A DNA stretch of 64,000 nt, from contig JBFLWU010000007.1 of the NCBI GenBank assembly GCA_040757625.1, positions 1,110 through 65,109 of the forward strand. Direction: 5' to 3'. This DNA comes from Thermodesulfobacteriota bacterium (lineage in GTDB: Bacteria; Desulfobacterota; Desulfobacteria; Desulfobacterales; JARGFK01). How positions within the stretch are numbered: position 1 is the stretch's first letter; every line of letters starts with the position of its first letter. The position numbers and the translations under genes were made by a program. Below, piece after piece: positions 166 to 53,388 of this stretch. The notes below the pieces were generated by a model. That model saw only the letters and a list, made by a program, of their open reading frames with translations, had not been told where the DNA came from and ran no database searches.

Positions 166-540
166 TCACCTTTTTTTATCAATTTTCTTTTTAAGCGCCA
201 CAATAACTCTATTGATGTCTTTCCAAATGGAATGGATTTGATCGTTTAACTCATTAAGCTTATCATCGCTAAAATATTTTATCCGATTTCCGTATATTAG
301 ATGAGATTTTGTTTCGGAAAGTGATCCTCTGGCATGATAATAAAAATTTAATTTGTCAAGGGTATGTTCCCTTCCAAACGACTCAGCAATATTGGCGGAA
401 ACTGATAATGCGGATCTTCTTATCTGCGAAGTAAGACCAAAATCTTCTGTTTTGGGGAGTTTCTCCGAAAGATCAAATATTCTAACTGCTAGATCCATAG
501 AACTTTTCCAAACCGGCATTTCTTCAAATGACTTATACAT
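166..540 (-). CDS. four-helix-bundle protein (23S rRNA intervening-sequence protein family, PF05635/TIGR02436-like)
   Basis: 124-aa ORF with ATG at 538-540. Family-typical helices are present: FEEMPVWKSSMDLAVRIFDLSEKLPK, QIRRSALSVSANIAESFGR and ARGSLSETKSHL. Confidence 0.85.
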   Translation of the reverse strand: MYKSFEEMPVWKSSMDLAVRIFDLSEKLPKTEDFGLTSQIRRSALSVSANIAESFGREHTLDKLNFYYHARGSLSETKSHLIYGNRIKYFSDDKLNELNDQIHSIWKDINRVIVALKKKIDKKR

Positions 541-576: not shown

Positions 577-645
577 CTAAATCTCTCCTTCAACCTTTCC
601 CTTATTCTTCCATCCTTTCCTTAACCTTAGCCTTAACCTTTCCCT
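577..645. repeat. word-array arm (CCTTAACC / CCTTAGCC words), right arm of the inverted pair
   Basis: The arm reads TCTAAATCTCTCCTTCAACCTTTCCC...CCTTAACCTTAGCCTTAACCTTTCCC. Its inner end TCTAAATC mirrors GATTTAGA at 151-158. Confidence 0.7.
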
Positions 646-2864
646 TACTTATTGACGACTTTCTTAAGCACTTCGCTTTTTAACGTTTCATTGTCTTCGG
701 GCACGATTCCCAGGACCACGGCGTCGTCGGGATGATACTCCCACACCCGTTCCACGGCCTGCTGCCAGCGCCCGGGATTGAGGGCCAGCGAGCGCCGGAA
801 CAGGTCCTGGAATTTTCTGACAGCGGCCCTTTGGGTACGGACAGCCCCGGCAGGGGGCGGCTCGCCGCCATTGGCGTTTTCCGGCAGCATGCCGGCCCGC
901 CAGACCCAGTACCAGGCAATGTTGAAGAGGATGTTGGGATCATTGGGGGAACTTTTAACCGCCTGGTCGAAACAGGCCTCTGCCAGGGGCAGCCAGCGGT
1001 GAACATAATCGTAGGGATCGTAGCTGCGCAGGGAATAGCGCTGACCCAACTCGTACCAGTAGATTTCGCTGGCCGGGTTCAGGCGCACCGCCCCCTCCAG
1101 GGCTGAGATTGCCGCCTCGTTGTATTCGCGCCGCTCCATCTCATGGGCGGATTTTGCCCGCATGTACAGAGCGGCCTTTTTAAAATAATACTCGGCATTG
1201 GCCGGGTTGATTTCGATGGCCCGCTGCACCTCGATGAGCTGGGGGTCCCAGTTCAGGTTCAGGGTGGCGTTCCACTCGGTGGGGGCCTTGACCTCGGCCC
1301 TGAAATGCCGGACGCTGAAGACCATTGCGGCCGCCAGCGCAGCCAGCAGGACCCCCGCCGCAATATGGCGCTGCCGGGCGTTCAGGGCGATTTCCCGGGT
1401 CCGGTAAAAAAAGCGCTCCTTGATGCCGCGCCCCTCACGGTGCAGGACCGCATAGCCCAGGGCCAGGACCGCCGCCAGGGTCAGGGGATTGGCCGGTATG
1501 TGCATGTTCAGTTCGAAATAACTGTGAAAAGCAAGCGCCAGGAGCCCGGCCATCACGCCGGCCCCCACTCCCAGAGCATAGAGATCCCGCCGGTAGCGCC
1601 ACACCCGGATCATCCTGAAAAGAAATAAAATAAAGGCCGCCGCGATCAGGAAGCCGCCGGCCAGGCCCGCCTCGCTCAGGGCCTCGATCCAGTCGTTGTG
1701 GGCGTGACCGCTGGAGGATACCCGGTTGAAATCATCCGGGGAAAAGCGCGGGTATACATGGCGGAAGTTGCCCCAGCCCACCCCGGCCGCTTTATAGGCG
1801 TTCACCATGGGCACGATCGTGCGGGTGATGAACAGGCGCTCCTCCAGCCCCTGCACCTGTTCAAAGCGCTTGAGCGTCCGGTCAATGCCGATATGCACCC
1901 CGTAAAAGAGAGCCAAGACGCAGAACAGGACGGCCAGGCCGCCGTATTTGCGATACCCCTGCTTGCTGAAAAAAATGACGGCGATCCCCAGCATGGCCGC
2001 GCCCATGGCCAGGATGCCGCCCCGGGAGCCCGACATCAGGAGCGCCAAGGTCATCACGACGGCGGCAAAAAAGAAGAAAATCATGCGGGGGCTGGCCGAC
2101 TCCGGCGCGAACAGCCCCACCAGCCGCTGCAGAGCCGCCCGTCCGCCCCCCAGCCCGGAAACGATCCGGCCGCGGCGCCGGCGCTGGGCGATCATGAACC
2201 CGAACAGGAGCAGGACTGCCATCTCGAGATACCCGGCATAGTGGTTGGCCCCGGTAAAGGTGCCGCTGGCCCGTCCGCCGGCCACCGTCGGACTCAGCCA
2301 CCACCACACCCTGGGTTGGGCGCTGAACAGCTGGTAGATTCCGTACAGGGCTTCGAACAGCCCCATAAAAACCAGGACATAGATCAGGATGTCCATCCGC
2401 TTTTTGGAGCGCAGCGTGTTGAGCGTTAAAAAAAACATCCCCAGATAGGTGATCAGCTTAAGCCCCTGGATAATCACCGGGTGAAGAAAATACGCCAACG
2501 GCATCCAGCCGCCGGCCCCTGCGCCTGCCCGGGTGAGCACGTCATTGAGGACCTGCTTGTCCGCAAAGGTCCGGGGCGATAAAAAAGCCGCCCAGGAGGG
2601 CGGCAGCGGGACGAGCTGCAGGCCGATGAAACCGACCAGCAGGAGCAGAAACAGGTTGGCCGGGGTTTTTACCCACGCCGGACCGCCGCTTTTGGAAAAT
2701 ATGAAGCGGTCCAAGACCCACAGGCCCAGCAGGACGAACACCCCCAGCTCCACCAGGGTGTAGGCCCACACGTGCAGGGCGCCGAAGGCCAGCGGCGCAA
2801 AGACCAGCAGGGTGATGATCCCGGCGAAAATGATCCGGTCCGCTTTGCTTTGCTTTGGAATCAT
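645..2864 (-). CDS. O-antigen ligase-like (Wzy_C/WaaL family) polytopic membrane protein with C-terminal TPR-like domain
   Basis: Many TM helices; motifs SGSRGGILAMGAAML and GHAHNDWIEALSEAGLAG are typical of O-antigen ligase family proteins. The C-terminal ~250 aa is repeat-helical (AEYYFKKAALYMRA..., YWYELGQRY...). The ORF track starts at a GTG (2900) inside a repeat; I prefer the ATG at 2864 (MIPKQSK). Confidence 0.75.
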   Translation of the reverse strand: MIPKQSKADRIIFAGIITLLVFAPLAFGALHVWAYTLVELGVFVLLGLWVLDRFIFSKSGGPAWVKTPANLFLLLLVGFIGLQLVPLPPSWAAFLSPRTFADKQVLNDVLTRAGAGAGGWMPLAYFLHPVIIQGLKLITYLGMFFLTLNTLRSKKRMDILIYVLVFMGLFEALYGIYQLFSAQPRVWWWLSPTVAGGRASGTFTGANHYAGYLEMAVLLLFGFMIAQRRRRGRIVSGLGGGRAALQRLVGLFAPESASPRMIFFFFAAVVMTLALLMSGSRGGILAMGAAMLGIAVIFFSKQGYRKYGGLAVLFCVLALFYGVHIGIDRTLKRFEQVQGLEERLFITRTIVPMVNAYKAAGVGWGNFRHVYPRFSPDDFNRVSSSGHAHNDWIEALSEAGLAGGFLIAAAFILFLFRMIRVWRYRRDLYALGVGAGVMAGLLALAFHSYFELNMHIPANPLTLAAVLALGYAVLHREGRGIKERFFYRTREIALNARQRHIAAGVLLAALAAAMVFSVRHFRAEVKAPTEWNATLNLNWDPQLIEVQRAIEINPANAEYYFKKAALYMRAKSAHEMERREYNEAAISALEGAVRLNPASEIYWYELGQRYSLRSYDPYDYVHRWLPLAEACFDQAVKSSPNDPNILFNIAWYWVWRAGMLPENANGGEPPPAGAVRTQRAAVRKFQDLFRRSLALNPGRWQQAVERVWEYHPDDAVVLGIVPEDNETLKSEVLKKVVNK

Positions 2865-2894
2865 AATCTTTTTTTTGACAGGCAAATCATATCT

Positions 2895-3096
2895 CACCAC
2901 AGAGGCACAGAGGCCACGGAGAAGCTTTTCTTTTTGCCCATCGGGAGACGGCGATGGGCAAAAACTGCCTTATTAATCAAAGCATTGACGCCGCATAAGT
3001 TAATAGCAGCTACAGGACGCGTATTTAATCCGAACCGGCATCTCCCGGTTCAGATTAATAGATTCACCTCTCTGTGTCCTCTGTGCCTCTGTGGTG
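2895..3096. repeat. RE-A composite element (two inverted half-units)
   Basis: The left half is CACCACAGAGGCACAGAGGCCACGGAG plus hairpin TTTTGCCCATCG-GGAGACGG-CGATGGGCAAAA. The right half is hairpin (C)TGAACCGG-CATCTC-CCGGTTCAG plus CTCTGTGTCCTCTGTGCCTCTGTGGTG. Confidence 0.85.
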
Positions 3097-3101
3097 AAAA
3101 T

Positions 3102-3296
3102 TCAGTTTGCCAGGCGTTTTATGCCCTCTTTCAGCACATGCACATTAAAAATGATCAACAGGCCATGCTTTATACCGGCAATCTTTAGATAGGTCAGCAG
3201 CTGAGCCTCGTGAATCGGCGATATCTGCTCACAGGCCTTCAGTTCGATATTGGCAACATTTCCAAGCTGAGCAGGATTCTTTTCTTCAGCCGGCAT
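3102..3296 (-). pseudogene. truncated duplicate of the GxxExxY gene (C-terminal ~50 codons only)
   Basis: Positions 3101-3253 are near-identical at the DNA level to 3356-3508, the 3' end of the intact gene. The peptide [40 protein letters not shown] is retained. The N-terminal part is replaced by an RE-A half element. Confidence 0.8.
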
Positions 3297-3350
3297 CTCC
3301 CGACTGAAGAAAATATAATCTATCCTCTGTGTCCTCTGTGCCTCTGTGGT
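3271..3350. repeat. RE-A solo half-unit (CAGCCGG-stem subtype)
   Basis: The unit reads GCAGGATTCTTTTCTTCAGCCGG-CATCTC-CCGACTGAAGAAAA...CCTCTGTGTCCTCTGTGCCTCTGTGGT and ends 6 nt from the GxxExxY stop codon. Confidence 0.85.
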
Positions 3351-3356
3351 AAAAAT

Positions 3357-3740
3357 TCAGTTTGCCAGGCGTTTTATGCCCTCTTTCAGCACAGGCACAT
3401 TAAAATTGATCAACAGGCCATGCTTTATACCGGCAATCTTTAGATAGGTCAGCAGCTGAGCCTCGTGAATCGGCGATATCTGCTCACAGGCCTTCAGTTC
3501 GACAATCAGTTTGTCCGCAACAACCAGGTCCAGCCTGTAGCCGCAATCAACCTTCAAGCCTTTATATTCCACGGGCAACTCTTTTTGGCTGACAAAGGGA
3601 ATTTTTCTTAAATCAAGTTCCAGGCAAAGGCAGCGCTCGTAAGCGTTTTCAAGCAAGCCCGGCCCCAAAATCTTGTGGACTTCAATGGCGGCCCCGATTA
3701 CATCGCCGGTCAATTGGTTAATATCGCTATAGCTTTTCAA
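3357..3740 (-). CDS. GxxExxY protein (PD-(D/E)XK nuclease-fold family, TIGR04256/PF13366-like)
   Basis: 127 aa. GxxExxY motif GLLENAY; PD-(D/E)XK-like core [20 protein letters not shown] start 7 nt from a repeat terminus. Confidence 0.85.
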
Positions 3741-3747
3741 ATATAAT

Positions 3748-4126
3748 CACCACAGAGGCACGGAGAACACAGAGGGTACGCTTGTTTATTCGATCGGGAG
3801 ATGCCGATCGAATAAAAATCTGTCCGCTTATGAAAAATACCCTTAGATTTCCTCAGATCTCGATTATTCTTCTTTCAAATATTCAGGAACCGGATTTTGT
3901 TTATATTAAAACAGGATATGTGTTTTATCTGAACCGGCATCTCCCGGTTTAGACTAATAAATTTATCTCTCTGTGCCTTTGTGGTGAAATTATATTGGGC
4001 TGGTTTAAAGAACGCTTTGGGAATTGACAGTTATCAAGTTTTTCCAGGCAGGATCTTTTCTTCAGCCGGCATCTCCCGGCTGAAGAAAATCATTCTATCC
4101 TCCGTGACCTCTGTGTCTCCGTGGTG
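3748..4126. repeat. RE-A composite unit U1 (paired element 3748-3986 plus solo half 4045-4126)
   Basis: CACCACAGAGGCACGGAGAACACAGAGG plus hairpin TTTATTCGATCGG-GAGATG-CCGATCGAATAAA. Next comes hairpin TTATCTGAACCGG-CATCTC-CCGGTTTAGAC and ...CTCTGTGCCTTTGTGGTG. Then 14-bp stem TTTTCTTCAGCCGG-CATCTC-CCGGCTGAAGAAAA and ...CTCTGTGTCTCCGTGGTG. Confidence 0.85.
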
Positions 4127-4137
4127 AATTTAAGAGC

Positions 4138-4809
4138 CTAAATCGAAAACAGCGCCCTTATCTGCTTCACCAGCTTTAAATCGCTCAGGCTCTTTTGCGG
4201 AACGCCGCCCGCCGCCTTGCAGTACAATAACTCGGACAGGCTGCCCCAGAAGCGAACCATCTCCCGGTGGATCAGCTTGCGCCCGCCGGATGAAATCCAC
4301 AGTTTGCCCCGGTCCGCCGGCGGGCTGTATACCTGCACCTTGACGTTCTGACCCAGCAACTGCGCCTTGCACAAAAACAGGGAACGGGGCAGATGATACA
4401 GGGAGGTCACGAGAATGATGGAGCGAAACTGCCTGTCCTTTATGATTTTCCCGGCATAAAAGGCGTTTTCAAAGGTGGTCCGGGCCTTGTCCTCCTTCAC
4501 GACGGTTACGGTGTCCGGCAGCCCATACCGGCGCCGGTAGTTCGCCAGATGGTAGGAATCGGCCTGGGTGACCACCAGGTTGGGGGCATACCCCCGGCCG
4601 GCCAGGTTATAACCGGCTTCCACCCGTTCCCGGAACCCGTTGAATACAACAATGGCATCGGCGTTCGTGAGGCTGGGTTCTTTTTGAATGACGCGATAAA
4701 AATAAATTCCTTCGATGATGAACAGCAGTACGACCGCCGAAGCCGCGTAGAGGCAATATTTAATGATCTTTTTGGCGAGAGTCATGCGTTTACCGCAGAG
4801 AGGCCTCAC
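4138..4809 (-). CDS. DUF218 / YdcF-ElyC-SanA family protein with N-terminal membrane anchor
   Basis: 223 aa with an N-terminal TM helix. DAIVVFNG...GYAPNLVV...TTFENA...ILVTSLYHLPRS is typical of DUF218. An alternative ATG lies at 4785. Confidence 0.75.
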   Translation of the reverse strand: MRPLCGKRMTLAKKIIKYCLYAASAVVLLFIIEGIYFYRVIQKEPSLTNADAIVVFNGFRERVEAGYNLAGRGYAPNLVVTQADSYHLANYRRRYGLPDTVTVVKEDKARTTFENAFYAGKIIKDRQFRSIILVTSLYHLPRSLFLCKAQLLGQNVKVQVYSPPADRGKLWISSGGRKLIHREMVRFWGSLSELLYCKAAGGVPQKSLSDLKLVKQIRALFSI

Positions 4810-4865
4810 GTACTCAGAGGTGATTCATTTCCTAATCGATGGACAGATTCAGAAAAGTGTTTCTT

Positions 4866-5215
4866 ACCGCAGAGGCACAGAGAACGCAGAGGGTACGCTT
4901 GTTTATTCGATCGGGAGATGCCGATCGAATAAAAGCCCTTTCTCTGGATAGCATACGTTTTAACTGAAACGGAATCTCCCTGCTGATGAAAATCATACTC
5001 CCCTCTGTGCCCTCTGTGCCCTCTGTGCCTCTGTGGTGAAATTATATTGGTTAGATTTAAAGAACGCTCTCGGAGTCCTACGCACTGCATTCCAACACAA
5101 TCTCCTTGAGCTTAACAGGGATGATCAATTTTCAGGCAGGATCTATTTCAACAGCCGGCATCTCCCGGCTGATGAAAATTATTCTCCCCTCTGTGCCCTC
5201 TGTGTCTCTGTGGTG
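4866..5215. repeat. RE-A composite unit U2 (homologous to U1, same orientation)
   Basis: It has the same module order as U1, including GGTGAAATTATATTGG...TTTAAAGAACGCT and CAGGCAGGATCT. The terminal octamer CCCTCTGTG occurs three times at 4991-5038. Confidence 0.85.
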
Positions 5216-5338
5216 CATTACAATTTGGAATGTGGATCAGCGGCCGGAGCCGGTCAGGACCCCGCCGGCGGTTTTGAAAAAAATTTTGAAATCGAGTTAC
5301 AATGACTACTTGTAGCTGGAATTAGCAATGTAAATTTG

Positions 5339-6940
5339 TTAGTTGGTGTGAGAGTCTGTGTTGCTGTAGCTTCCGTTATTTCTCAGCTTGCCCGCTTTTT
5401 CCAATTTCTCAAACGCACCGATCATGGATCGGCGCAGGCTCTCGATGCGCTTTAAGGTGAAATTGTCCATGGCGCTGCGCTCAAGATCCTTTAACAGCAG
5501 CAGGGTGCCGTAATTTTTTTTGTCTTTGACGAATAACTGCATCTCCAGCCGGAACAGGCACCGGCTGCACAACTGCTCCGCGTCCGTTATGGGTTCAAGT
5601 GAGCACACCCAGTCGGGCGGCTCCCTGCGCATGCTGACGCTGGACATGGACACCGGCGTTTTGCGGCGCTCAGCGCTGTGCCCTTCGACATAACCGTTTG
5701 CCCCATTATTCTTTAACGTGTTTAAATATAGCGCGGCAAAATCAAAATCGAGCAGCCTCAACGCCTGACACACATTGTCCCACATGTTCTTCATGCTTTT
5801 GGAGTGGCCGATCTCGATCTGGATGCTCAGAAAGGTCCTGCGCTCATGACTGAACCCTGCTTCATCGGTCAGGTCCCTGAACCAGCCGTATATCTTGTCC
5901 GTGGCAAAATATTCGAAGTAGCCCAGCTTTCTAATAAATATGACAACGCCGGCGCCTAAAACAATCAGAAAAAGGCCGGCGCGTTCGTCCCGGATGTTCA
6001 CCAGAACCACCGCTACGACGCACAAAAAAAGCGTCATCAGATAGATAAAAAGGACCGCCTTTTTCGTTGTCAGGCCCATGGCCAGCAAGCGGTGATGCAC
6101 ATGGCCGTTGTCCGGCGCAAACATATTTTTCCCACGGATAAAACGACGCACCGGCGCCAGGATCGTATCAAAAATTGGTACTCCCAAAGCCAGGAGCGGT
6201 ATCAATAAAATAACACTTAACTGGCTCTTAAAAGAACCGATAATCGAAAGACCGGCAATGGCATATCCCAGAAAATAGCTCCCGCCGTCGCCCAAAAAGA
6301 TTGAAGCCGGATTAAAGTTGTATCGTAGAAACCCCAGCACGCTGCCGCCAAGGGCTGCAAACATCATGGCTGTAAAAAAATCATTCTTTAATACAGAAAA
6401 AATAACCATAACCACAGACGCAAATACCACAATACCACCAGCCAGACCATCCAGACCATCCACCAGGTTAATTGCATTAATTAAAAGTACAAACCAGAAG
6501 ATCGTCAGGACATAGCTTAAAATTCCAAACTCGATACTTAAACCCAAAATACGGAACCCTTCAATACGCACCCCACCCCAAAAAGCCAGACTGGCCGCCA
6601 GAATCTGAACAGCAAATTTCAACATATGACTTTGCCTCTTGAAATCATCCAAAAGGCCGATCATAAAAATAACTAAAGAACCGATAAAAAATAAAATATT
6701 TAAATGAGTTATTTCAATGCGGTTAACAACAGTCGTGTTAAAGAGTTTACTTATAATGAGCGCTAAGAAAAACGTGATAAAAACAGCCAAGCCGCCAGTT
6801 CTTGGAATTGGACGGTTGTGGACCTTTCTCGCATCAGGATTATCTAAAGCCCCCAATTTTATACCCAACCGTCGGGCAACTGGTGTTAGTAATAGCGAAA
6901 GAATCAATGTAAGTATAAATATCGTAAGAACCGTGGTCAT
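5339..6940 (-). CDS. undecaprenyl-phosphate HexNAc-1-phosphate transferase (MraY/WecA/WbpL family, GT4) with ~190-aa C-terminal extension
   Basis: 533 aa. DNPDARKVHNRPIPRTGGLAVF, NLVDGLDGLAGG and FLGDGGSYFLGY are motifs of polyprenyl-phosphate N-acetylhexosamine-1-P transferases. Residues ~345-533 are soluble and unassigned. Confidence 0.85.
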   Translation of the reverse strand: MTTVLTIFILTLILSLLLTPVARRLGIKLGALDNPDARKVHNRPIPRTGGLAVFITFFLALIISKLFNTTVVNRIEITHLNILFFIGSLVIFMIGLLDDFKRQSHMLKFAVQILAASLAFWGGVRIEGFRILGLSIEFGILSYVLTIFWFVLLINAINLVDGLDGLAGGIVVFASVVMVIFSVLKNDFFTAMMFAALGGSVLGFLRYNFNPASIFLGDGGSYFLGYAIAGLSIIGSFKSQLSVILLIPLLALGVPIFDTILAPVRRFIRGKNMFAPDNGHVHHRLLAMGLTTKKAVLFIYLMTLFLCVVAVVLVNIRDERAGLFLIVLGAGVVIFIRKLGYFEYFATDKIYGWFRDLTDEAGFSHERRTFLSIQIEIGHSKSMKNMWDNVCQALRLLDFDFAALYLNTLKNNGANGYVEGHSAERRKTPVSMSSVSMRREPPDWVCSLEPITDAEQLCSRCLFRLEMQLFVKDKKNYGTLLLLKDLERSAMDNFTLKRIESLRRSMIGAFEKLEKAGKLRNNGSYSNTDSHTN

Positions 6941-31504: not shown

Positions 31505-31787
31505 ATCTTTTAAACATCCAGCGTCGAAGGATAATCCCCATTCGAAGTAATTTTTTTTTAACAGAGTAATTTCAAAAAGTTATGGTTTCCCCCAATAGTT
31601 TAACGGGACGTCGGTGAAGAGAATGCACGGCGAAAAAAGCTGTTAAGCTGATAAAAGAAAACAGGTTAAGATTGAAATGCGGCTGACGGCGCAGGGCGCA
31701 CGGCTCACGGTGCAAAAACAGGGGAAGGCCAAGTACATATTTTCATAAATACGGTTATCTCATTGCCCGTTCGCTGCACTCATTCGA

Positions 31788-32272
31788 GACACAGAGGTCA
31801 CGGAGAAACCTTTCTTTTTGCCCATCGGGAGATGACGATGCATGAAAAAGCCTGAGCCTTCGGTATACTTTTTAGGTTCTTCTCCCAACTAGTTGGGAGA
31901 AAGGATTCCAGGATTCAAGGGGTCCAGGGGCCAAGTGTTTGTTTTCAATCAGTTATTAAATTCCAAGTGCATTTTTCGTCATTATTGCAACAAAAAAAAC
32001 TAAAGGATTTGAAATTCAAGAGCATTTCACTTGAACCCTTGAATCCTCGGCCCCTTGAACCCTTGGGATTCATGTCCAACATTCTTAAAGATGATTTTAC
32101 TCATTTTGCAGAATTAACTACAACTAATCCGGAGATGATACACTTTTTATTATCACCGCATAGACACCGTGTATGCTTATGCGACAAGCGGATATGTGTT
32201 TTTATCTGAACCGGCATCTCCCGGTTCAGATAAACTGATTCACCCCTCTGTGCCCTCTGTGGCTCTGTGGTG
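31788..32272. repeat. RE-A composite element with nested inverted word arms
   Basis: The left half is GACACAGAGGTCACGGAG plus a degenerate hairpin. The interior has palindrome TTCTCCCAAC-TA-GTTGGGAGAA (31879-31900) and CAAGGGG/CCCCTTG word arms (31901-31936 versus 32028-32071). The right half is TTATCTGAACCGG-CATCTC-CCGGTTCAGATAA plus CCCTCTGTGCCCTCTGTGGCTCTGTGGTG. Confidence 0.8.
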
Positions 32273-33118: not shown

Positions 33119-33325
33119 TATTGAACCGCAGAGACGCAAAGGTCGCCGAGTTTCTTATTGTTGCTTTTCGTTGAGAGGACGAAAAGCAAGCAGCTGAAAG
33201 CTCTTTTCATTGCCGGCCCCTCACCGGCAATGAAAATGAATCTTTCTTTGCGTTCTCTGCGTCTCGAGCGAAGCGGGCGGTGAACAAACCAAGGCGCCTC
33301 ACTTGTTACACCTGTCTCCCACCCT
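33119..33325 (+). repeat. RE-B element, long variant
   Basis: AACCGCAGAGACGCAAAGG, then hairpin TTGCTTTTCGT-TGAGAGG-ACGAAAAGCAA, the AGCTGAAAGC box and hairpin CATTGCCGG-CCCCTCA-CCGGCAATG. It ends with ...GCGTCTCGAGCGAAGCGGGCGGTGAA plus a CCTGTCTCCCACCCTTCC tail. Confidence 0.85.
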
Positions 33326-34290: not shown

Positions 34291-34862
34291 ATTGCACCGC
34301 AAAGGCGCAAAGTTAGCAAAGATCATTTTCCTGTTGCTTTTCGCTGAGAAGGCGAAAAGCAATCGTCAACGCCCTTTCAGGGATATAAATTCCCACTGTC
34401 GAGCAAACACCCCTGATCAGAGAACGTGTTTGTTTAATAAAGCTGAAAGCTTTTTCCTTTGGCGTCCTCTCAACGGCAAAGGAAATTTCTTGGCGCCCTC
34501 AGCGTCTCGATCGCAGCGGGCGGTTGATTTCATGCTCTTCTTCAAAGCACTAGTTGGACCAGTATATCCATAGAACCGGCACCGCAAAGGCGCAAAGTTA
34601 GCAAAGATTATTTTCCTGTTGCTTTTCGCTGAGAAGGCGAAAAGCAAACGTCAACGCCCTTTCAGGGATATAAATTCCCACTGTCGAGCAAATGCACCTA
34701 ATACGAACATGTCCGTTTAATAAAGCTGAAAGCTTTTTCCTTTGGCGACCTCTCACCGGCAAAAGAAATTTCTTGGCGCCCTCTGCGTCCTGAGACTATC
34801 GAGCGGTTGATTTCATGCTCTTCTTCAAAACACCGGTTGGAACAGTATATCCATAGAACCGG
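34291..34862 (+). repeat. tandem duplication (periods 285 and 283 bp) of an expanded RE-B element
   Basis: CACCGCAAAGGCGCAAAGTT starts recur at 34295, 34580 and 34863. Each unit has hairpin TTGCTTTTCGC-TGAGAAG-GCGAAAAGCAA, a roughly 90-bp centre and a second hairpin of the type CCTTTGGCG(T)-CCTCTCA-(A)CGGCAAAGG. The array begins 14 nt upstream of the argF ATG. Confidence 0.9.
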
Positions 34863-35435
34863 CACCGCAAAGGCGCAAAGTTGGCAAAGATCATTTTCCT
34901 GTTGCTTTTCGCTGAGAAGGCGAAAAGCGAACATGATCACTTTATAACTTCAGAATCTTCAGGAAGTTCACGTACAACCCTAACGATTCCTTCCCGCATG
35001 AGCGCTACGTTAAAATTTAACAATAATCCCAACTGAAGACCGGACAATTTTAAATAGGTTAATAATTGGGCTTTATGAATCGGTTCGATTTCATTTACCG
35101 ATTTTAATTCAACAATTATTTGATCTTCAACAATGACATCCAACCGGTAACTACAGTCCAGTTTAATACCTTTATACTCAACAAATAACGGTTCCTGCCG
35201 TTTAAATTTTATACCCTTGAGGCTAAACTCACAGCAAAGACATTCCTCATACGTTGATTCAAGCAAACCGGGGCCAAGGTACTTATGAACTTCTATCGCC
35301 GACCCTATTATTTTATTGCTTAATTGATTGATATCCATTGTCAAGTCAATCGACAAGTTGAAAAGCTTTTTCCTTGACGGCCGCTCACCGTCAAGGAAAA
35401 AAATATTTCTCAGCGTCCTCGGCGCCTTTGCGGTG
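34863..35435 (+). mobile_element. RE-B element carrying a GxxExxY gene as cargo (candidate autonomous copy)
   Basis: Perfect 14-bp inverted termini, CACCGCAAAGGCGC (34863-34876) and GCGCCTTTGCGGTG (35422-35435). Hairpin 1 lies at 34904-34928. Hairpin 2, TTTTTCCTTGACGG-CCGCTCA-CCGTCAAGGAAAAA, lies at 35367-35401. Only the GxxExxY ORF lies between them. Mobility is an inference. Confidence 0.6.
34937..35356 (-). CDS. GxxExxY protein (PD-(D/E)XK nuclease-fold family)
   Basis: GLLESTY motif and [17 protein letters not shown] core. It is a paralogue of 3357-3740. The start is TTG 35356 or ATG 35338 (MDINQL). Confidence 0.85.
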
Positions 35436-37747: not shown

Positions 37748-37863
37748 GGACCGCAGAGACGCAAAGGTCGCAGGGTTTCTTATGGTTGCTTTTCGTTGAG
37801 AGGACGAAAAGCAAGCAGCTGAAAGCCCTTTTCATTGCGTTCTCAGCGTCTTTGCGGTGAAAT
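37748..37863 (+). repeat. RE-B element, short copy lacking hairpin 2
   Basis: GACCGCAGAGACGCAAAGG, hairpin 1 and AGCTGAAAGCCCTTTTCATTGC, joined directly to GTTCTCAGCGTCTTTGCGGTGAA. It lies in the argB-hslU spacer. Confidence 0.85.
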
Positions 37864-39357: not shown

Positions 39358-39513
39358 CACCGCAGAGGCGCAGAGGGCGCAAAGATTATTTTTTCTGTTG
39401 CCTTCTGCTGAGAGGCCGGAAGGCAAACAGGTAAAAGCTTTTTCATTGCCGGCCGCTCACCGGCAATGAAAAATACTATTTACCTCTGCGTTCTCAGCGC
39501 CTTTGCGGTTAAT
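39358..39513 (+). repeat. RE-B element
   Basis: CACCGCAGAGGCGCAGAGGGCGCAAAG, hairpin TTGCCTTC(T)G-CTGAGAGG-C(C)GGAAGGCAA and hairpin CATTGCCGG-CCGCTCA-CCGGCAATG, ending in CTCTGCGTTCTCAGCGCCTTTGCGGT. It lies in the hslU-hslV spacer. Confidence 0.85.
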
Positions 39514-40127: not shown

Positions 40128-40412
40128 ATTTTGTCCGTTGTCTGTTGTACGCTGTCCATCGCCTCGCCGATCTCAAAAATAATTGAACCGCAGAGGCGCA
40201 AAGGTCGCCGAGTTTCTTCTTATGGTTGCTTTTCGTTGAGAGGACGAAAAGCAAGCAGCTGAAAGCCCTTTTCATTGCCGGCCTCTCACCGGCTATGAAA
40301 ATGAATCTTTCTTTGCGTTCTCTGCGTCTCGAGCGAAGCGGGCGGTGAACAAACCAAGGCGCCTCACTTGTCACACCTGTCTCCCGCCCTTCCCGCCTTA
40401 AGCCGTTAGCCT
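40128..40412 (+). repeat. RE-B element, long variant
   Basis: Near-identical to 53113-53388, including the left extension ...CGCCTCGCCGATCTCAAAAATAATTGAACC and the right tail ...CCTGTCTCCCGCCCTTCCCGCCTTAAGCCGTTAGCC. It lies in the hslV-xerC spacer. Confidence 0.85.
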
Positions 40413-40670: not shown

Positions 40671-41639
40671 TCACTTGCGCGGATGCGCCTTGTCGTATGT
40701 CTCCATCAGGCGATCGATGCTGACGTGCGTATATTTCTGGGTCGTGGACAGGCTCTTGTGTCCCAAGAGTTCCTGCACCACCCGCAAATCGGCGCCGGCA
40801 TCCAGCAGATGCGTCGCAAAGGAATGGCGCAGCGCGTGCGGCGACACCGGCGTGGCGATGCCGCACGCCAGCCCCGTTTTATCCAGTATCCGCGCAATGG
40901 ACCGGGCCGTCAGCCGGCCGAAGTTTTTATTCATGAACAGGGGGCCGTCATTTTTCAGGCGGCCTCTGCCGGACTTTGCGTTGGTTTCGGCGTCAAGCCG
41001 GTCCCGATAGGAGCGGATGGACGCCACGGCTTTTTGCCCGATGGGGACGATCCGCTCCTTGCTTCCCTTGCCCAAGACGCGAACGACACCCGCGCCGAAG
41101 TCCACGTCCGAAAGATTCATGCCGGCGATCTCCGAAACCCGCAGGCCGCATGAATAGAGCGTCTCAAAGATCGCGCGGTTTCTCAAGCCCAGGAGGCTCT
41201 TGGTATCAATGGAATCCAGCAGGCGGAACATATCGTCCACCGGCAGATACGTCGGTAGGGTTTTGTCCTGTTTCGGCGTCAGGATCGCATCAACCGGATT
41301 CTCCTGCAAGGCGCCGTGTTTGACAAGATACCTGAAAAATGATCGAACGGCCGACAGCTTGCGCGCCACCGTGGCTTTTTGATTTTTCTTATGCAAAATC
41401 CCCAGAAACTCCCTGATCATCAAGCCGTCCACCCGGCAGACGCTGACATTGCCCTCCGCTCCATTCGCATGTCCGTCCAGGTGGCGTTTTTCGGAAACAA
41501 AGGCCGAAAACTCCTCTAGGTCGCGCAGGTAGGCCCGGCAGGTGTTTTCTGAATAGGCTTTTTCCGTGGAAAGCGACTCGACAAAAGACCGAATCAATGT
41601 GTTCAGGTGAGTTGCGCTCATTCGAACCCCGATTGCCAA
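40671..41639 (-). CDS. xerC: tyrosine recombinase XerC/XerD
   Basis: GLRVSE (catalytic R), HALRHSFATHLL (HxxR) and LGHKSLSTTQKYTHV (Y). The xerC-hslV-hslU order is conserved. An alternative ATG lies at 41621. Confidence 0.85.
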   Translation of the reverse strand: MAIGVRMSATHLNTLIRSFVESLSTEKAYSENTCRAYLRDLEEFSAFVSEKRHLDGHANGAEGNVSVCRVDGLMIREFLGILHKKNQKATVARKLSAVRSFFRYLVKHGALQENPVDAILTPKQDKTLPTYLPVDDMFRLLDSIDTKSLLGLRNRAIFETLYSCGLRVSEIAGMNLSDVDFGAGVVRVLGKGSKERIVPIGQKAVASIRSYRDRLDAETNAKSGRGRLKNDGPLFMNKNFGRLTARSIARILDKTGLACGIATPVSPHALRHSFATHLLDAGADLRVVQELLGHKSLSTTQKYTHVSIDRLMETYDKAHPRK

Positions 41640-42431: not shown

Positions 42432-42610
42432 CGCGCCGATCTTAAAAATAATTGAACCGCAGAGGCGCAAAGGTCGCCGAGTTTCTTCTTATGGTTGCTT
42501 TTCGTTGAGAGGACGAAAAGCAAGCAGCTGAAAGCCCTTTTCATTGCCGGCCTCTCACCGGCAATGAAAATGAATCTTTCTTTGCGTTCTCAGCGTCTTT
42601 GCGGTGAAAT
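42432..42610 (+). repeat. RE-B element, canonical short form
   Basis: Terminus at 42456-42473, hairpin 1 at 42495-42523 (loop TGAGAGG), hairpin 2 at 42538-42570 (loop CCTCTCA), and right terminus ...GTTCTCAGCGTCTTTGCGGTGAA ending at 42608. Confidence 0.9.
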
Positions 42611-47136: not shown

Positions 47137-47365
47137 ATTCACCGCAAAGACGCTAAGCACGCAAAGATTGTTTACGGTTGCTTTCCGCTGAGACGCCGGA
47201 AAGCAACTGACAGTCATCCTCCGAAAATGCAGACTGCTTCCAACCGAAATCGATTTTCGTGGTTAACAAAGCTGAACGTTTTTCCTTTGCCGCTCTCTCA
47301 ACGGCAAAGGAAATGAACATCCTTTTCTCTGCGACCTTTGCGCCTTGAGCTAAGCGGGCGGTGGG
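47137..47365 (+). repeat. RE-B element, expanded-centre variant
   Basis: TTCACCGCAAAGACGCTAAGCACGCAAAG, hairpin GTTGCTTTCCG-CTGAGACGC-CGGAAAGCAAC, a roughly 80-bp centre and hairpin TTTTTCCTTTGCCG-CTCTCTCA-ACGGCAAAGGAAA. It ends with ...CCTTTGCGCCTTGAGCTAAGCGGGCGGTG. It lies in the UDG-coaBC spacer. Confidence 0.8.
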
Positions 47366-53112: not shown

Positions 53113-53388
53113 GGTTACTTGTTGTCCGTTGTTCATTGCCTCGCCGATCTCAAAAATAATTGAACCGCAGAGGCGCAAAGGTCGCCGAGTTTCTTATGGT
53201 TGCTTTTCGTTGAGAGGACGAAAAGCAAGCAGCTGAAAGCCCTTTTCATTGCCGGCCTCTCACCGGCGATGAAAATAAATCTTTCTTTGCGTTCTCTGCG
53301 TCTCAAGCGAAGCGGGCGGTGAACAAACCAAGGCGCCTCACTTGTCACACCTGTCTTCCGCCCTTCCCGCATTAAGCCGTCAGCCTTT
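53113..53388 (+). repeat. RE-B element, long variant
   Basis: See 40128-40412. It lies in the leuS-lptE spacer. Confidence 0.85.

Follow-up and report, generated by a model that had tools for sequence, protein, structure and literature searches.

Do the structured repeats of a bacterial operon capture and shuffle the genes that they bracket, or have they settled between genes that were already in place? The question is raised by positions 2895-5215 of a 64-kb stretch of DNA from a Thermodesulfobacteriota bacterium (the window, which was the whole of the source DNA examined), where a GxxExxY gene and a DUF218 gene lie between hairpin-bearing repeats in a polysaccharide operon. An earlier note on this DNA had described the segment as a cassette-like array and a hotspot of gene capture. 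We compared operon order and spacer content with those of the loci L001-L006 and L204/L205 of relatives, and we analyzed a set of 80 metagenomic GxxExxY loci picked by GxxExxY protein similarity alone (58-80% identity). It is very probable that one family of small selfish elements settled in two spacers (GT4|DUF218 and DUF218|Wzy_C) of a conserved, vertically inherited polysaccharide operon and then multiplied there. The full-length element of this family has the order terminal inverted repeat (TIR), hairpin in some forms, GxxExxY, hairpin in some forms, TIR; it measures about 430-600 bp and encodes a protein of ~125 aa. The shorter repeats of the window, including the two composite units U1 and U2 that flank DUF218, are gene-less derivatives of it.

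The half-module, its hairpin and the two repeat families

When the window was searched with the TIR motif CCTCTGTGCCTCTGTGGTG, allowing up to 3 mismatches, 11 occurrences were found compared to 0 expected from 100 shuffles of the window, and nine of the 11 lay inside 2895-5215. The loop motif CCGGCATCTCCCGG occurred nine times, compared to 0.62 expected. Each of the modules listed in the earlier note for 2895-5215 was recovered at its coordinates, with motifs far above chance. The left, right and solo halves that had been taken for separate modules proved to be copies of a single one: when all ends of the RE-A family, to which these repeats belong, were read from the tip inward, 11 of the 11 in the window were one half-module of ~75-80 nt in two orientations. 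The TIR of this half-module consists of three tandem 8-9-nt units, TTCACCACAGAGG-CACAGAGG-NCACAGAG, reading from the tip inward (T)TCACCACAGAGG-CACAGAGG-NCACAGAG. Inward of the TIR come about 12 nt of spacer and then an AT-flanked hairpin, of which the loop (CGGGAGATGCCG, core GGGAGATGCC) is conserved while the stem varies by copy (GCCCATCG, ATTCGATCGG, CTGAACCGG or CAGCCGG). Two inverted halves form a complete RE-A element, as at 2895-3096, 3748-3986, 4865-5038 and 31787-32272, and solo halves are located at 3271-3351, 4050-4126 and 5140-5215. Half-modules of the kind that make up U1 and U2 also turned up in other parts of the window, and many further genomes have them too. A search of a genome collection with the pattern CACAGAGGN{10,40}GGGAGATGCC was too loose, giving 117 loci that were mostly chance matches; after a palindrome filter, 13 of them were left with true modules.

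From the window and the fetched loci, 224 distinct half-modules were pooled. Perfect stems of 7 bp or more were present in 86, and among these there were 72 different stems, yet only a handful of loops. Covariation was evaluated with 32 A-type hairpins from many genomes, which were chosen by TIR and loop and not by pairing. Twelve of the 13 stem pairs varied on both sides and 89.7% of cells paired. The covariation score was 0.694 compared to 0.192 for shuffled data (0/500 shuffles reached 0.694), and it collapsed when the partners were slid by 1-3 columns. Judged from these patterns of substitution, the hairpin is selected as a structure. Across phyla the TIR is conserved in sequence, whereas the hairpin stems keep only their structure. 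The TIR units (CACAGAGG) and the hairpin loops (GGGAGAUG, UGAGAGG, UAAGAGA) all have a Shine-Dalgarno-like GGAG/GAGG/GAGA core, for example at 2895-2923 and 2943-2952, placed on the strand upstream of the gene, and the inverted repeats around the four-helix-bundle (4HB) genes described below are arranged likewise.

The sister family RE-B has the TIR CACCGCAGAGGCGCAAAGG and the loop TGAGAGG, and the stretch from 33 to 53 kb contains about ten copies of it (33124-33261, 34294-35435, 37752-37859, 39358-39510, 40186-40326, 42455-42606, 47140-47342 and 53163-53300). RE-B occupies spacers of housekeeping operons, including argF|argD, argB|hslU, hslU|hslV and hslV|xerC. The copy at 34294-35435 is a tandem array with a period of 283, and its third and last unit, 34863-35435, is a canonical full element composed of TIR, hairpin, GxxExxY (34973-35335, minus strand), hairpin and TIR. 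The encoded protein is 61% identical to the RE-A-associated GxxExxY protein. The hairpins adjoin the gene in this unit, bearing out the observation that its topology is opposite to that of the RE-A-associated gene. Within the array, 34294-34932 repeats with 91% matches at the period of 283, with the CCATAGAACCGG flank repeated ahead of successive tips; another tandem array, at locus L150, has a period of 182 and 3.1 copies. Tandem amplification including the spacer is a habit of the TIR-GxxExxY family.

Gene-less copies of both families are 108-240 bp long (except for one of 486 bp with an insert nested in it), have arms of ~29 nt and number about 17 in the 64 kb. In the copy with the insert (31787-32272), which has a degraded left tip, the nested sequence at 31901-32063 is a third type of inverted repeat, with GGATTCAAGG/GGGTCCAGG tandem units and 27-30-nt arms.

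The GxxExxY gene and its association with the TIR

The intact GxxExxY gene of the RE-A array (3357-3740, minus strand, TTG start) encodes 127 aa that score above the curated cut-offs of TIGR04256 (155.3 bits, cut-off 35; E=7.5e-46) and PF13366 (152 bits, cut-off 22; E=1.1e-44). Its AF2 model (pLDDT 95.1) has a minimal PD-(D/E)XK fold, the superfamily being recognized by an alpha-beta-beta-beta-alpha-beta core and a D...(D/E)xK motif. The nearest structures in Foldseek were lambda exonuclease and Cas4 SSO0001, with probabilities of 0.97-1.0, and residues D71, E81 and K83 were invariant among 41 GxxExxY sequences. GxxExxY is predicted from the model to have a PD-(D/E)XK nuclease fold. A PDB sequence search returned no relatives of GxxExxY at E<=1. 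When clusters were formed at 90% identity, the GxxExxY protein of the window matched at least 8000 of them.

Flank statistics were obtained from the 71 of the 80 loci that had at least 120 nt on both sides of the gene. Canonical TIRs, counted by a strict regular expression, were present on both sides in 50 of the 71, upstream in 53 and downstream in 61. About 60 of the 71 loci had upstream and downstream inverted repeats beating every shuffle, and the arms were always of the TTCACC[AG]C[AG]GAG... type. The density of TIRs was 3.70 per kb in the GxxExxY flanks, and at distances above 700 nt it was 0.14 per kb. Full elements fell into two size groups, compact ones of ~427-460 bp without hairpins and others of ~560-600 bp with hairpins. 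GxxExxY was the only gene systematically bracketed by the TIRs across the 80 loci, a pattern which indicates that it is the repeat family's own cargo and the only mobile gene among those bracketed.

The same TIR flanks annotated GxxExxY genes in Bacteroides finegoldii (radA|X|FAD protein), Gemmatirosa and Bernardetia, and in Sphingomonas (fabD|X|fabG) the upstream TIR arm only was found. The TIR was absent around distant GxxExxY genes of Treponema, Persicobacter, Fusobacteria and Prevotella (36-43% identity), so the association concerns a subclade and not all of PF13366. GxxExxY was co-oriented with its upstream neighbour in 32 of 37 cases and with its downstream neighbour in 39 of 43. In a Sphingomonas parapaucimobilis plasmid (L209, fabD|GxxExxY|fabG) and in Bacteroides finegoldii (L206, radA|GxxExxY|FAD protein) the gene sits in core operons with spacers of 3-60 nt. 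In a comparison aimed at cognate pairs of nuclease and TIR, the nearest protein neighbour had the same TIR type (A-type CAC or B-type CGC) in 62 of 70 cases. Mean identity was 64.4% within types and 62.9% between them, and since these values are about equal the TIR types are not deep clades. A literature search with GxxExxY, PF13366, TIGR04256 and the TIR strings, which did not extend to subscription journals, found no description of the element, and the link between GxxExxY and the TIR and hairpin is apparently unreported.

These results bear on the possibility that the repeats are ordinary MITEs (miniature inverted-repeat transposable elements), non-autonomous and moved in trans by a DDE transposase whose gene lies in another part of the genome, GxxExxY being a passenger that is often taken along. 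Bacterial MITEs, for example Correia/NEMIS of Neisseria and ERIC, are short, TIR-bounded, non-coding, multi-copy and intergenic, and they are co-transcribed and form stable stem-loops. The gene-less copies of the window are likewise short, non-coding, TIR-bounded and multi-copy, and the elements share with MITEs their size, intergenic site and stable predicted stem-loops; furthermore, our view of the source genome is 64 kb. However, two of the three characters by which MITEs are recognized are missing. No target-site duplication was detected in 77 complete elements at offsets of 0-4, where flank matches equalled the permutation expectation. There is also no DDE-transposase parent, and what the longer relative carries is a gene of 125 aa for a predicted nuclease. 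No transposase was found among the window ORFs of at least 150 aa, in which the only recombinase is XerC-type; about 200 loci yielded no larger element bounded by these TIRs, and the only longer form found is the one that carries GxxExxY. A TIR that accompanies GxxExxY across phyla would also be unexpected if the gene were a passenger. We therefore regard movement by such a transposase as unlikely.

The polysaccharide operon in relatives and growth of the array

The array is adjoined upstream, in the operon sense, by a resident WecA/MraY-like GT4 gene (5339-6940, minus strand; PF00953, E=7.5e-39), at which the low-GC glycan cluster begins, and downstream by a resident O-antigen-ligase-like Wzy_C/TPR gene (645-2900, minus strand; PF04932, E=2.9e-18, plus TPR repeats). 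Between them the order in the operon sense is U2 (half, linker, element), DUF218, U1 (half, linker, element), GxxExxY and then a bracket of half-module, internally deleted GxxExxY and complete element. The DUF218/YdcF gene (4138-4785, minus strand; PF02698, E=6.6e-16) is the third resident. Its ORF spans 4138-4809 on the minus strand, but the deposited protein has 215 aa, which places the ATG at 4785; the product is 100% identical to an NCBI protein from a metagenome-assembled genome labelled Thermodesulfobacteriota.

In L001-L004 the same operon is free of repeats, with GT4 and DUF218 separated by 24 nt and DUF218 and Wzy_C by 14 nt, and identities to the window are 75% for DUF218, 76% for Wzy_C and 70.5% for GT4 (the last figure being that of the L001 orthologue, which adjoins DUF218). 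Orthologues of Wzy_C occupy the same position in L001, L005 and L204 with 76-80% identity, and DUF218 was syntenic in L001-L006 and L204/L205, its orthologues being 74-76% identical in the same operon position with or without repeats. This synteny argues that DUF218 is a resident operon gene that was never mobile. What differs among the lineages is the spacer content. The DUF218|Wzy_C spacer was found in four states: empty, with a 4HB gene, with a GxxExxY element, and in the expanded form of the window. The GT4|DUF218 spacer is likewise variable.

In L005/L006 a 4HB (23S_rRNA_IVP) gene with its own tandem-unit inverted repeats lies between DUF218 and Wzy_C. Between GT4 and DUF218 there are 5 kb with toxin-antitoxin modules and a Y1 transposase, in addition to a solo RE-A half. 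In L204/L205 the DUF218|Wzy_C spacer contains, in order, an element remnant, a half-module, GxxExxY, a junction and a complete gene-less element. The GxxExxY protein of this unit is 89% identical to that of the window and lies at the same site, the junction of stop codon, AATTT and TACCACAGAG is common to the window, and the gene-less element has the stems CTGAACCGG and GCCCATCG, as in window 3096-2895. Between the window and L204/L205 the selfish ORFs are the more conserved, with GxxExxY at 89% and 4HB at 86% identity compared to 74% for DUF218 and 80% for Wzy_C.

These comparisons speak against an integron-like cassette array that lacks its integrase and in which structured repeats capture or shuffle single genes, DUF218 among them. 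As in integrons, co-oriented and apparently promoterless single ORFs lie in an array between hairpin-folding repeats, the spacers vary between relatives, and recombination between U1 and U2, which are direct repeats around DUF218, could loop that gene out. In contrast to a cassette, DUF218 keeps its place in the operon of every relative, with repeats or without, so that the model is largely refuted by synteny, and across the 80 loci the repeats systematically bracket GxxExxY alone. Integrons also have IntI, an attC core (R''-L''...L'-R', GTTRRRY), mobile bracketed genes and site-specific insertion. The earlier statement that no integrase is present holds for an integron integrase, although the window does encode a tyrosine recombinase: the gene at 40674-41639 (minus strand), 35 kb away beside hslVU, is of XerC/XerD type (TIGR02224, 329.5 bits) and scores 131 with the integron-integrase model, for which the cut-off is 265. 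The absence of an attC-type core was likewise borne out, the boundaries being TTCACCACAGAGG...CCTCTGTGGTGAA TIRs and GGGAGATGCC-loop hairpins; the ends TTCACC...GGTGAA are not attC R and L boxes. Cassette capture is consequently highly improbable. Of the proposed hotspot, the part concerning insertion and rearrangement stands, in view of the four spacer states and an arrangement that differs among lineages, whereas gene capture is not supported because DUF218 is a syntenic resident in the relatives.

The array can instead be resolved into duplicated and decayed copies of one unit of the selfish family. The element next to Wzy_C is a complete gene-less RE-A element of 202 bp (2895-3096), with TIR, GCCCATCG-stem hairpin (2931-2964), spacer, CTGAACCGG-stem hairpin and TIR; its 29-nt arms are 93% complementary, and 2890-3101 has a predicted RNA fold of -113.9 kcal/mol (z=-11.95). 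An orthologous copy with both stems the same is located at L204 1547-1757. Beside it lies an internally deleted GxxExxY copy (3102-3270, minus strand; TIGR04256, E=6e-13), of which the leader and the last 48 codons are retained; in a tblastn comparison, 3105-3248 matched residues 80-127 of the intact protein with 94% identity. A solo half-module follows at 3271-3351, with a CAG(C/T)CGG-stem hairpin and its tip at 3351, and is the counterpart of the gene-proximal half of the L204 element. The bracket of half, deleted GxxExxY and element is the L204 unit minus the middle of the gene. A tandem duplicate of 213 nt, D1 (3035-3247 and 3290-3502, 92% identical), takes in the deleted copy and covers, in this order, the hairpin loop, the TIR, ATTTT and the final 146 nt of the GxxExxY gene. 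D1 is the product expected of unequal recombination between the TIRs upstream and downstream of the gene. TIR tips are aimed at the intact ORF, 5 nt away on one side (3351 to 3357) and 7 nt away on the other (3740 to 3748), confirming the tight fit between gene-facing termini that had been pointed out.

U1 (3748-4126) is composed of the element 3748-3986 (ATTCGATCGG and CTAAACCGG stems), a linker at 3987-4049 and the half-module 4050-4126 (CAGCCGG stem). Its paralogue U2 (4865-5215) is composed of the complete element 4865-5038, a linker at 5039-5139 and the half-module 5140-5215. The two are direct repeats with the same module order, as had been reported, and align with 77% mean column identity and three indels; their left halves are 96% identical. 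The outermost TIRs pair in the predicted RNA folds of both (z=-6.0 for U1 and -6.3 for U2), and each unit can thus be regarded as a TIR-bounded composite. Both share L204-type unit boundaries, with GATCCTGC after the hairpin and AATTT ahead of the next tip.

Tandem duplication, deletion and the doubling of composite units account for the growth of the array, and cassette insertion does not. Its history would begin with an L204-like ancestor having DUF218, an element remnant, the unit of half, GxxExxY and complete gene-less element, and Wzy_C. Unequal recombination between TIRs would then have duplicated gene and half in tandem (D1), and loss of the middle of one GxxExxY copy would have left the fragment. 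Finally, a composite with the gene almost wholly deleted (half, linker and complete element, with inverted TIRs) would have come to flank DUF218 in the form of U1 and U2. One could suppose that all this is an old local duplication that has been static since. The divergence of U1 and U2 to 77% identity would agree with great age, and the gene-stop/TIR junction common to L204 makes part of the arrangement old. However, the arrangement is different in each of four related lineages, and identity is 92% in D1 and 96% between the left halves of the two U units. A static duplication therefore appears improbable.

The same relatives bear on whether the repeats are host-selected regulatory structures, that is, mRNA-processing or stability modules of the operon and not selfish DNA. 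The strong covariation of the hairpin and the very stable predicted folds would suit such a role, and a CAGCCGG-stem half-module is kept in the same orientation beside DUF218 in the window, L005 and L204; that of L005, a solo RE-A half upstream of DUF218, is oriented as window 5140-5215. Yet the orthologous operon of L001-L004 does without repeats, the same modules occur in unrelated spacers (argF|argD, hslU|hslV) and in many genomes, and tandem amplification with decay is typical of selfish repeats. A regulatory origin is accordingly given little weight.

Several observations concern the surroundings of the array. Genes for 4HB proteins (23S_rRNA_IVP/TIGR02436) occur in neighbouring operon spacers, in the window at 166-540 (minus strand; flanks 116-150 and 588-648), where L204/L205 have an 86% identical orthologue at the same site, and elsewhere at L204 4214-4585, at L005 7149-7574, 9991-10350 and 13166-13525, and in L025 and L123. 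Their flanking inverted repeats are made of short tandem purine-rich units (GAGGCTAAGG; GGGAGTAGGCAGTA; ACGGCGT...) that are different in each copy. G-rich short-unit repeats at 60-130 and 31680-31720 (GGCGCAAGGC..., GGCGCAGGGCGCACGGCTCACGG) resemble such arms and adjoin the 4HB gene and the island-edge RE-A element. A second hotspot in the operon is L005 1210-6360, containing a GT4 3' remnant, RelE/HTH, HicAB, MazE, a 313-aa Y1_Tnp (IS200-like) and the solo RE-A half. The GC content of the window drops from about 0.60 to 0.34-0.45 over roughly 6-32 kb, in agreement with the low-GC glycan island that had been said to start at the array. This island of glycosyltransferase and sugar-modification genes (~6000-31500) has RE-A elements on both sides, at 4865-5215 and, at its far edge, at 31787-32272, and the elements may serve as recombination substrates for the swapping of surface-polysaccharide genes.

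Parallels with known elements and the spread of the family

The present elements resemble the ORF-bearing intervening sequences (IVS) of 23S rRNA, with the S23p/4HB ORF of Coxiella and Leptospira, more than MITEs or integron cassettes. The intervening sequence of Coxiella has a 28-bp TIR stem, two to three tandem GACAGAT heptamers and a 4HB ORF, and it is excised by RNase III (PMC4990558). In both systems a small ORF lies within terminal inverted repeats of ~28-30 bp that form one long stem, the tandem units vary in number (two to three heptamers in Coxiella, two to four CACAGAGG octamers here), and the element is selfish, inside a transcription unit and co-oriented with it. Moreover, 4HB genes of the IVS family occupy neighbouring spacers of the same operon. 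The differences are also clear. The 23S sequences are inserted in helices 25 or 45, while the present elements are in the spacers of mRNA operons. No Rfam family reached the gathering threshold over the whole window, which thus contains no rRNA; at E<=5 a single match, a spurious snoRNA, was obtained over 2700-5400, and the window has neither tRNA nor tmRNA. The 23S ORF encodes a four-helix bundle and the present one a predicted PD-(D/E)XK nuclease. Subterminal conserved-loop hairpins, abundant gene-less derivatives and tandem arrays are peculiar to the present elements, for which RNase III excision is suggested by analogy.

Two further systems have partial similarity. The REP/REPIN-RAYT and IS200/IS605 systems, where Y1 HUH transposases act on hairpins, also have hairpin repeats without target-site duplication, and the Y1_Tnp of L005 lies near a half-module. 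In REPs, however, which are imperfect palindromes that have a conserved 5' tetranucleotide and go with a Y1 RAYT gene, the stems are conserved, whereas the present elements have free stems and conserved loops, have long TIRs and do not flank a RAYT gene, and no Y1_Tnp homologue was found in the window. Free-standing homing endonuclease genes include PD-(D/E)XK types such as I-Ssp6803I; in homing, the enzyme cuts an empty allele at a defined site and repair copies the gene into it. They have in common with the present elements a small nuclease gene wedged in conserved operons, presence/absence polymorphism at conserved sites and no target-site duplication. Unlike in homing, no conserved target sequence was found beyond the borders of the element, what is conserved being the TIR of the element itself, and nuclease activity is a prediction from the structural model.

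From these parallels a mechanism can be outlined. The elements would be transcribed along with the operon, and their ~30-bp TIR stems would probably be processed by RNase III, by analogy with the Coxiella sequence; processing of this type would explain tolerance inside operons. Spread could possibly occur by nuclease-assisted copying based on recombination and repair, leaving no target-site duplication, though we offer this step tentatively. With the same reserve we suggest that the TIR-GxxExxY unit may be an undescribed, multi-phylum, minimal selfish family, the nuclease of which would recognise the tandem-octamer TIRs of its own element, the GAGA-loop hairpins or both. The enzyme would drive spread either through homing into sites that bear a TIR or through copying by break and repair. 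MITE-like derivatives would arise in this way, as would tandem arrays in operons, and RNA excision as in 23S intervening sequences would give tolerance.

Several points weigh against this account of a selfish family that colonised and amplified in the spacers. The linkers of U1 and U2 (63 nt and 101 nt), which may be remnants of the gene, sit at the gene's position, but their interior is only about 40% identical to it and the linker motif was found nowhere else. Among the relatives, none of which is more than 95% identical, no insertion or excision event was caught directly. The intact gene is abutted by TIR tips and not by hairpins, a minority topology (6-9 of the 71 loci) that the model does not cleanly derive. 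Co-transcription of the elements with the operon is only inferred. Furthermore, 4HB genes, which are not nucleases, are found in analogous pods flanked by other tandem-unit inverted repeats, and since these pods encode no nuclease the ORF need not be a mobility enzyme, which is the chief objection to nuclease-assisted spread.

At this locus the tempting reading of gene capture is corrected: DUF218 is an ordinary operon gene framed by selfish repeats. Beyond the locus, GxxExxY/PF13366, a very large protein family whose function is unknown, is closely linked with one particular architecture of inverted repeat and hairpin that is conserved from Desulfobacterota to Bacteroides, has MITE-like derivatives and tandem arrays, and is co-oriented within housekeeping operons such as arg, fab and radA. 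The origin and mobility of 23S intervening sequences have been unexplained since their first description (PMC4990558). Because its design parallels theirs, the TIR-GxxExxY family is a tractable system for the study of element movement and of tolerance within operons, with cultivated Bacteroides finegoldii and Sphingomonas as tractable hosts. If spread is indeed driven by the nuclease, this would provide a function for PF13366 and a mechanistic handle on the movement of IVS-type elements.

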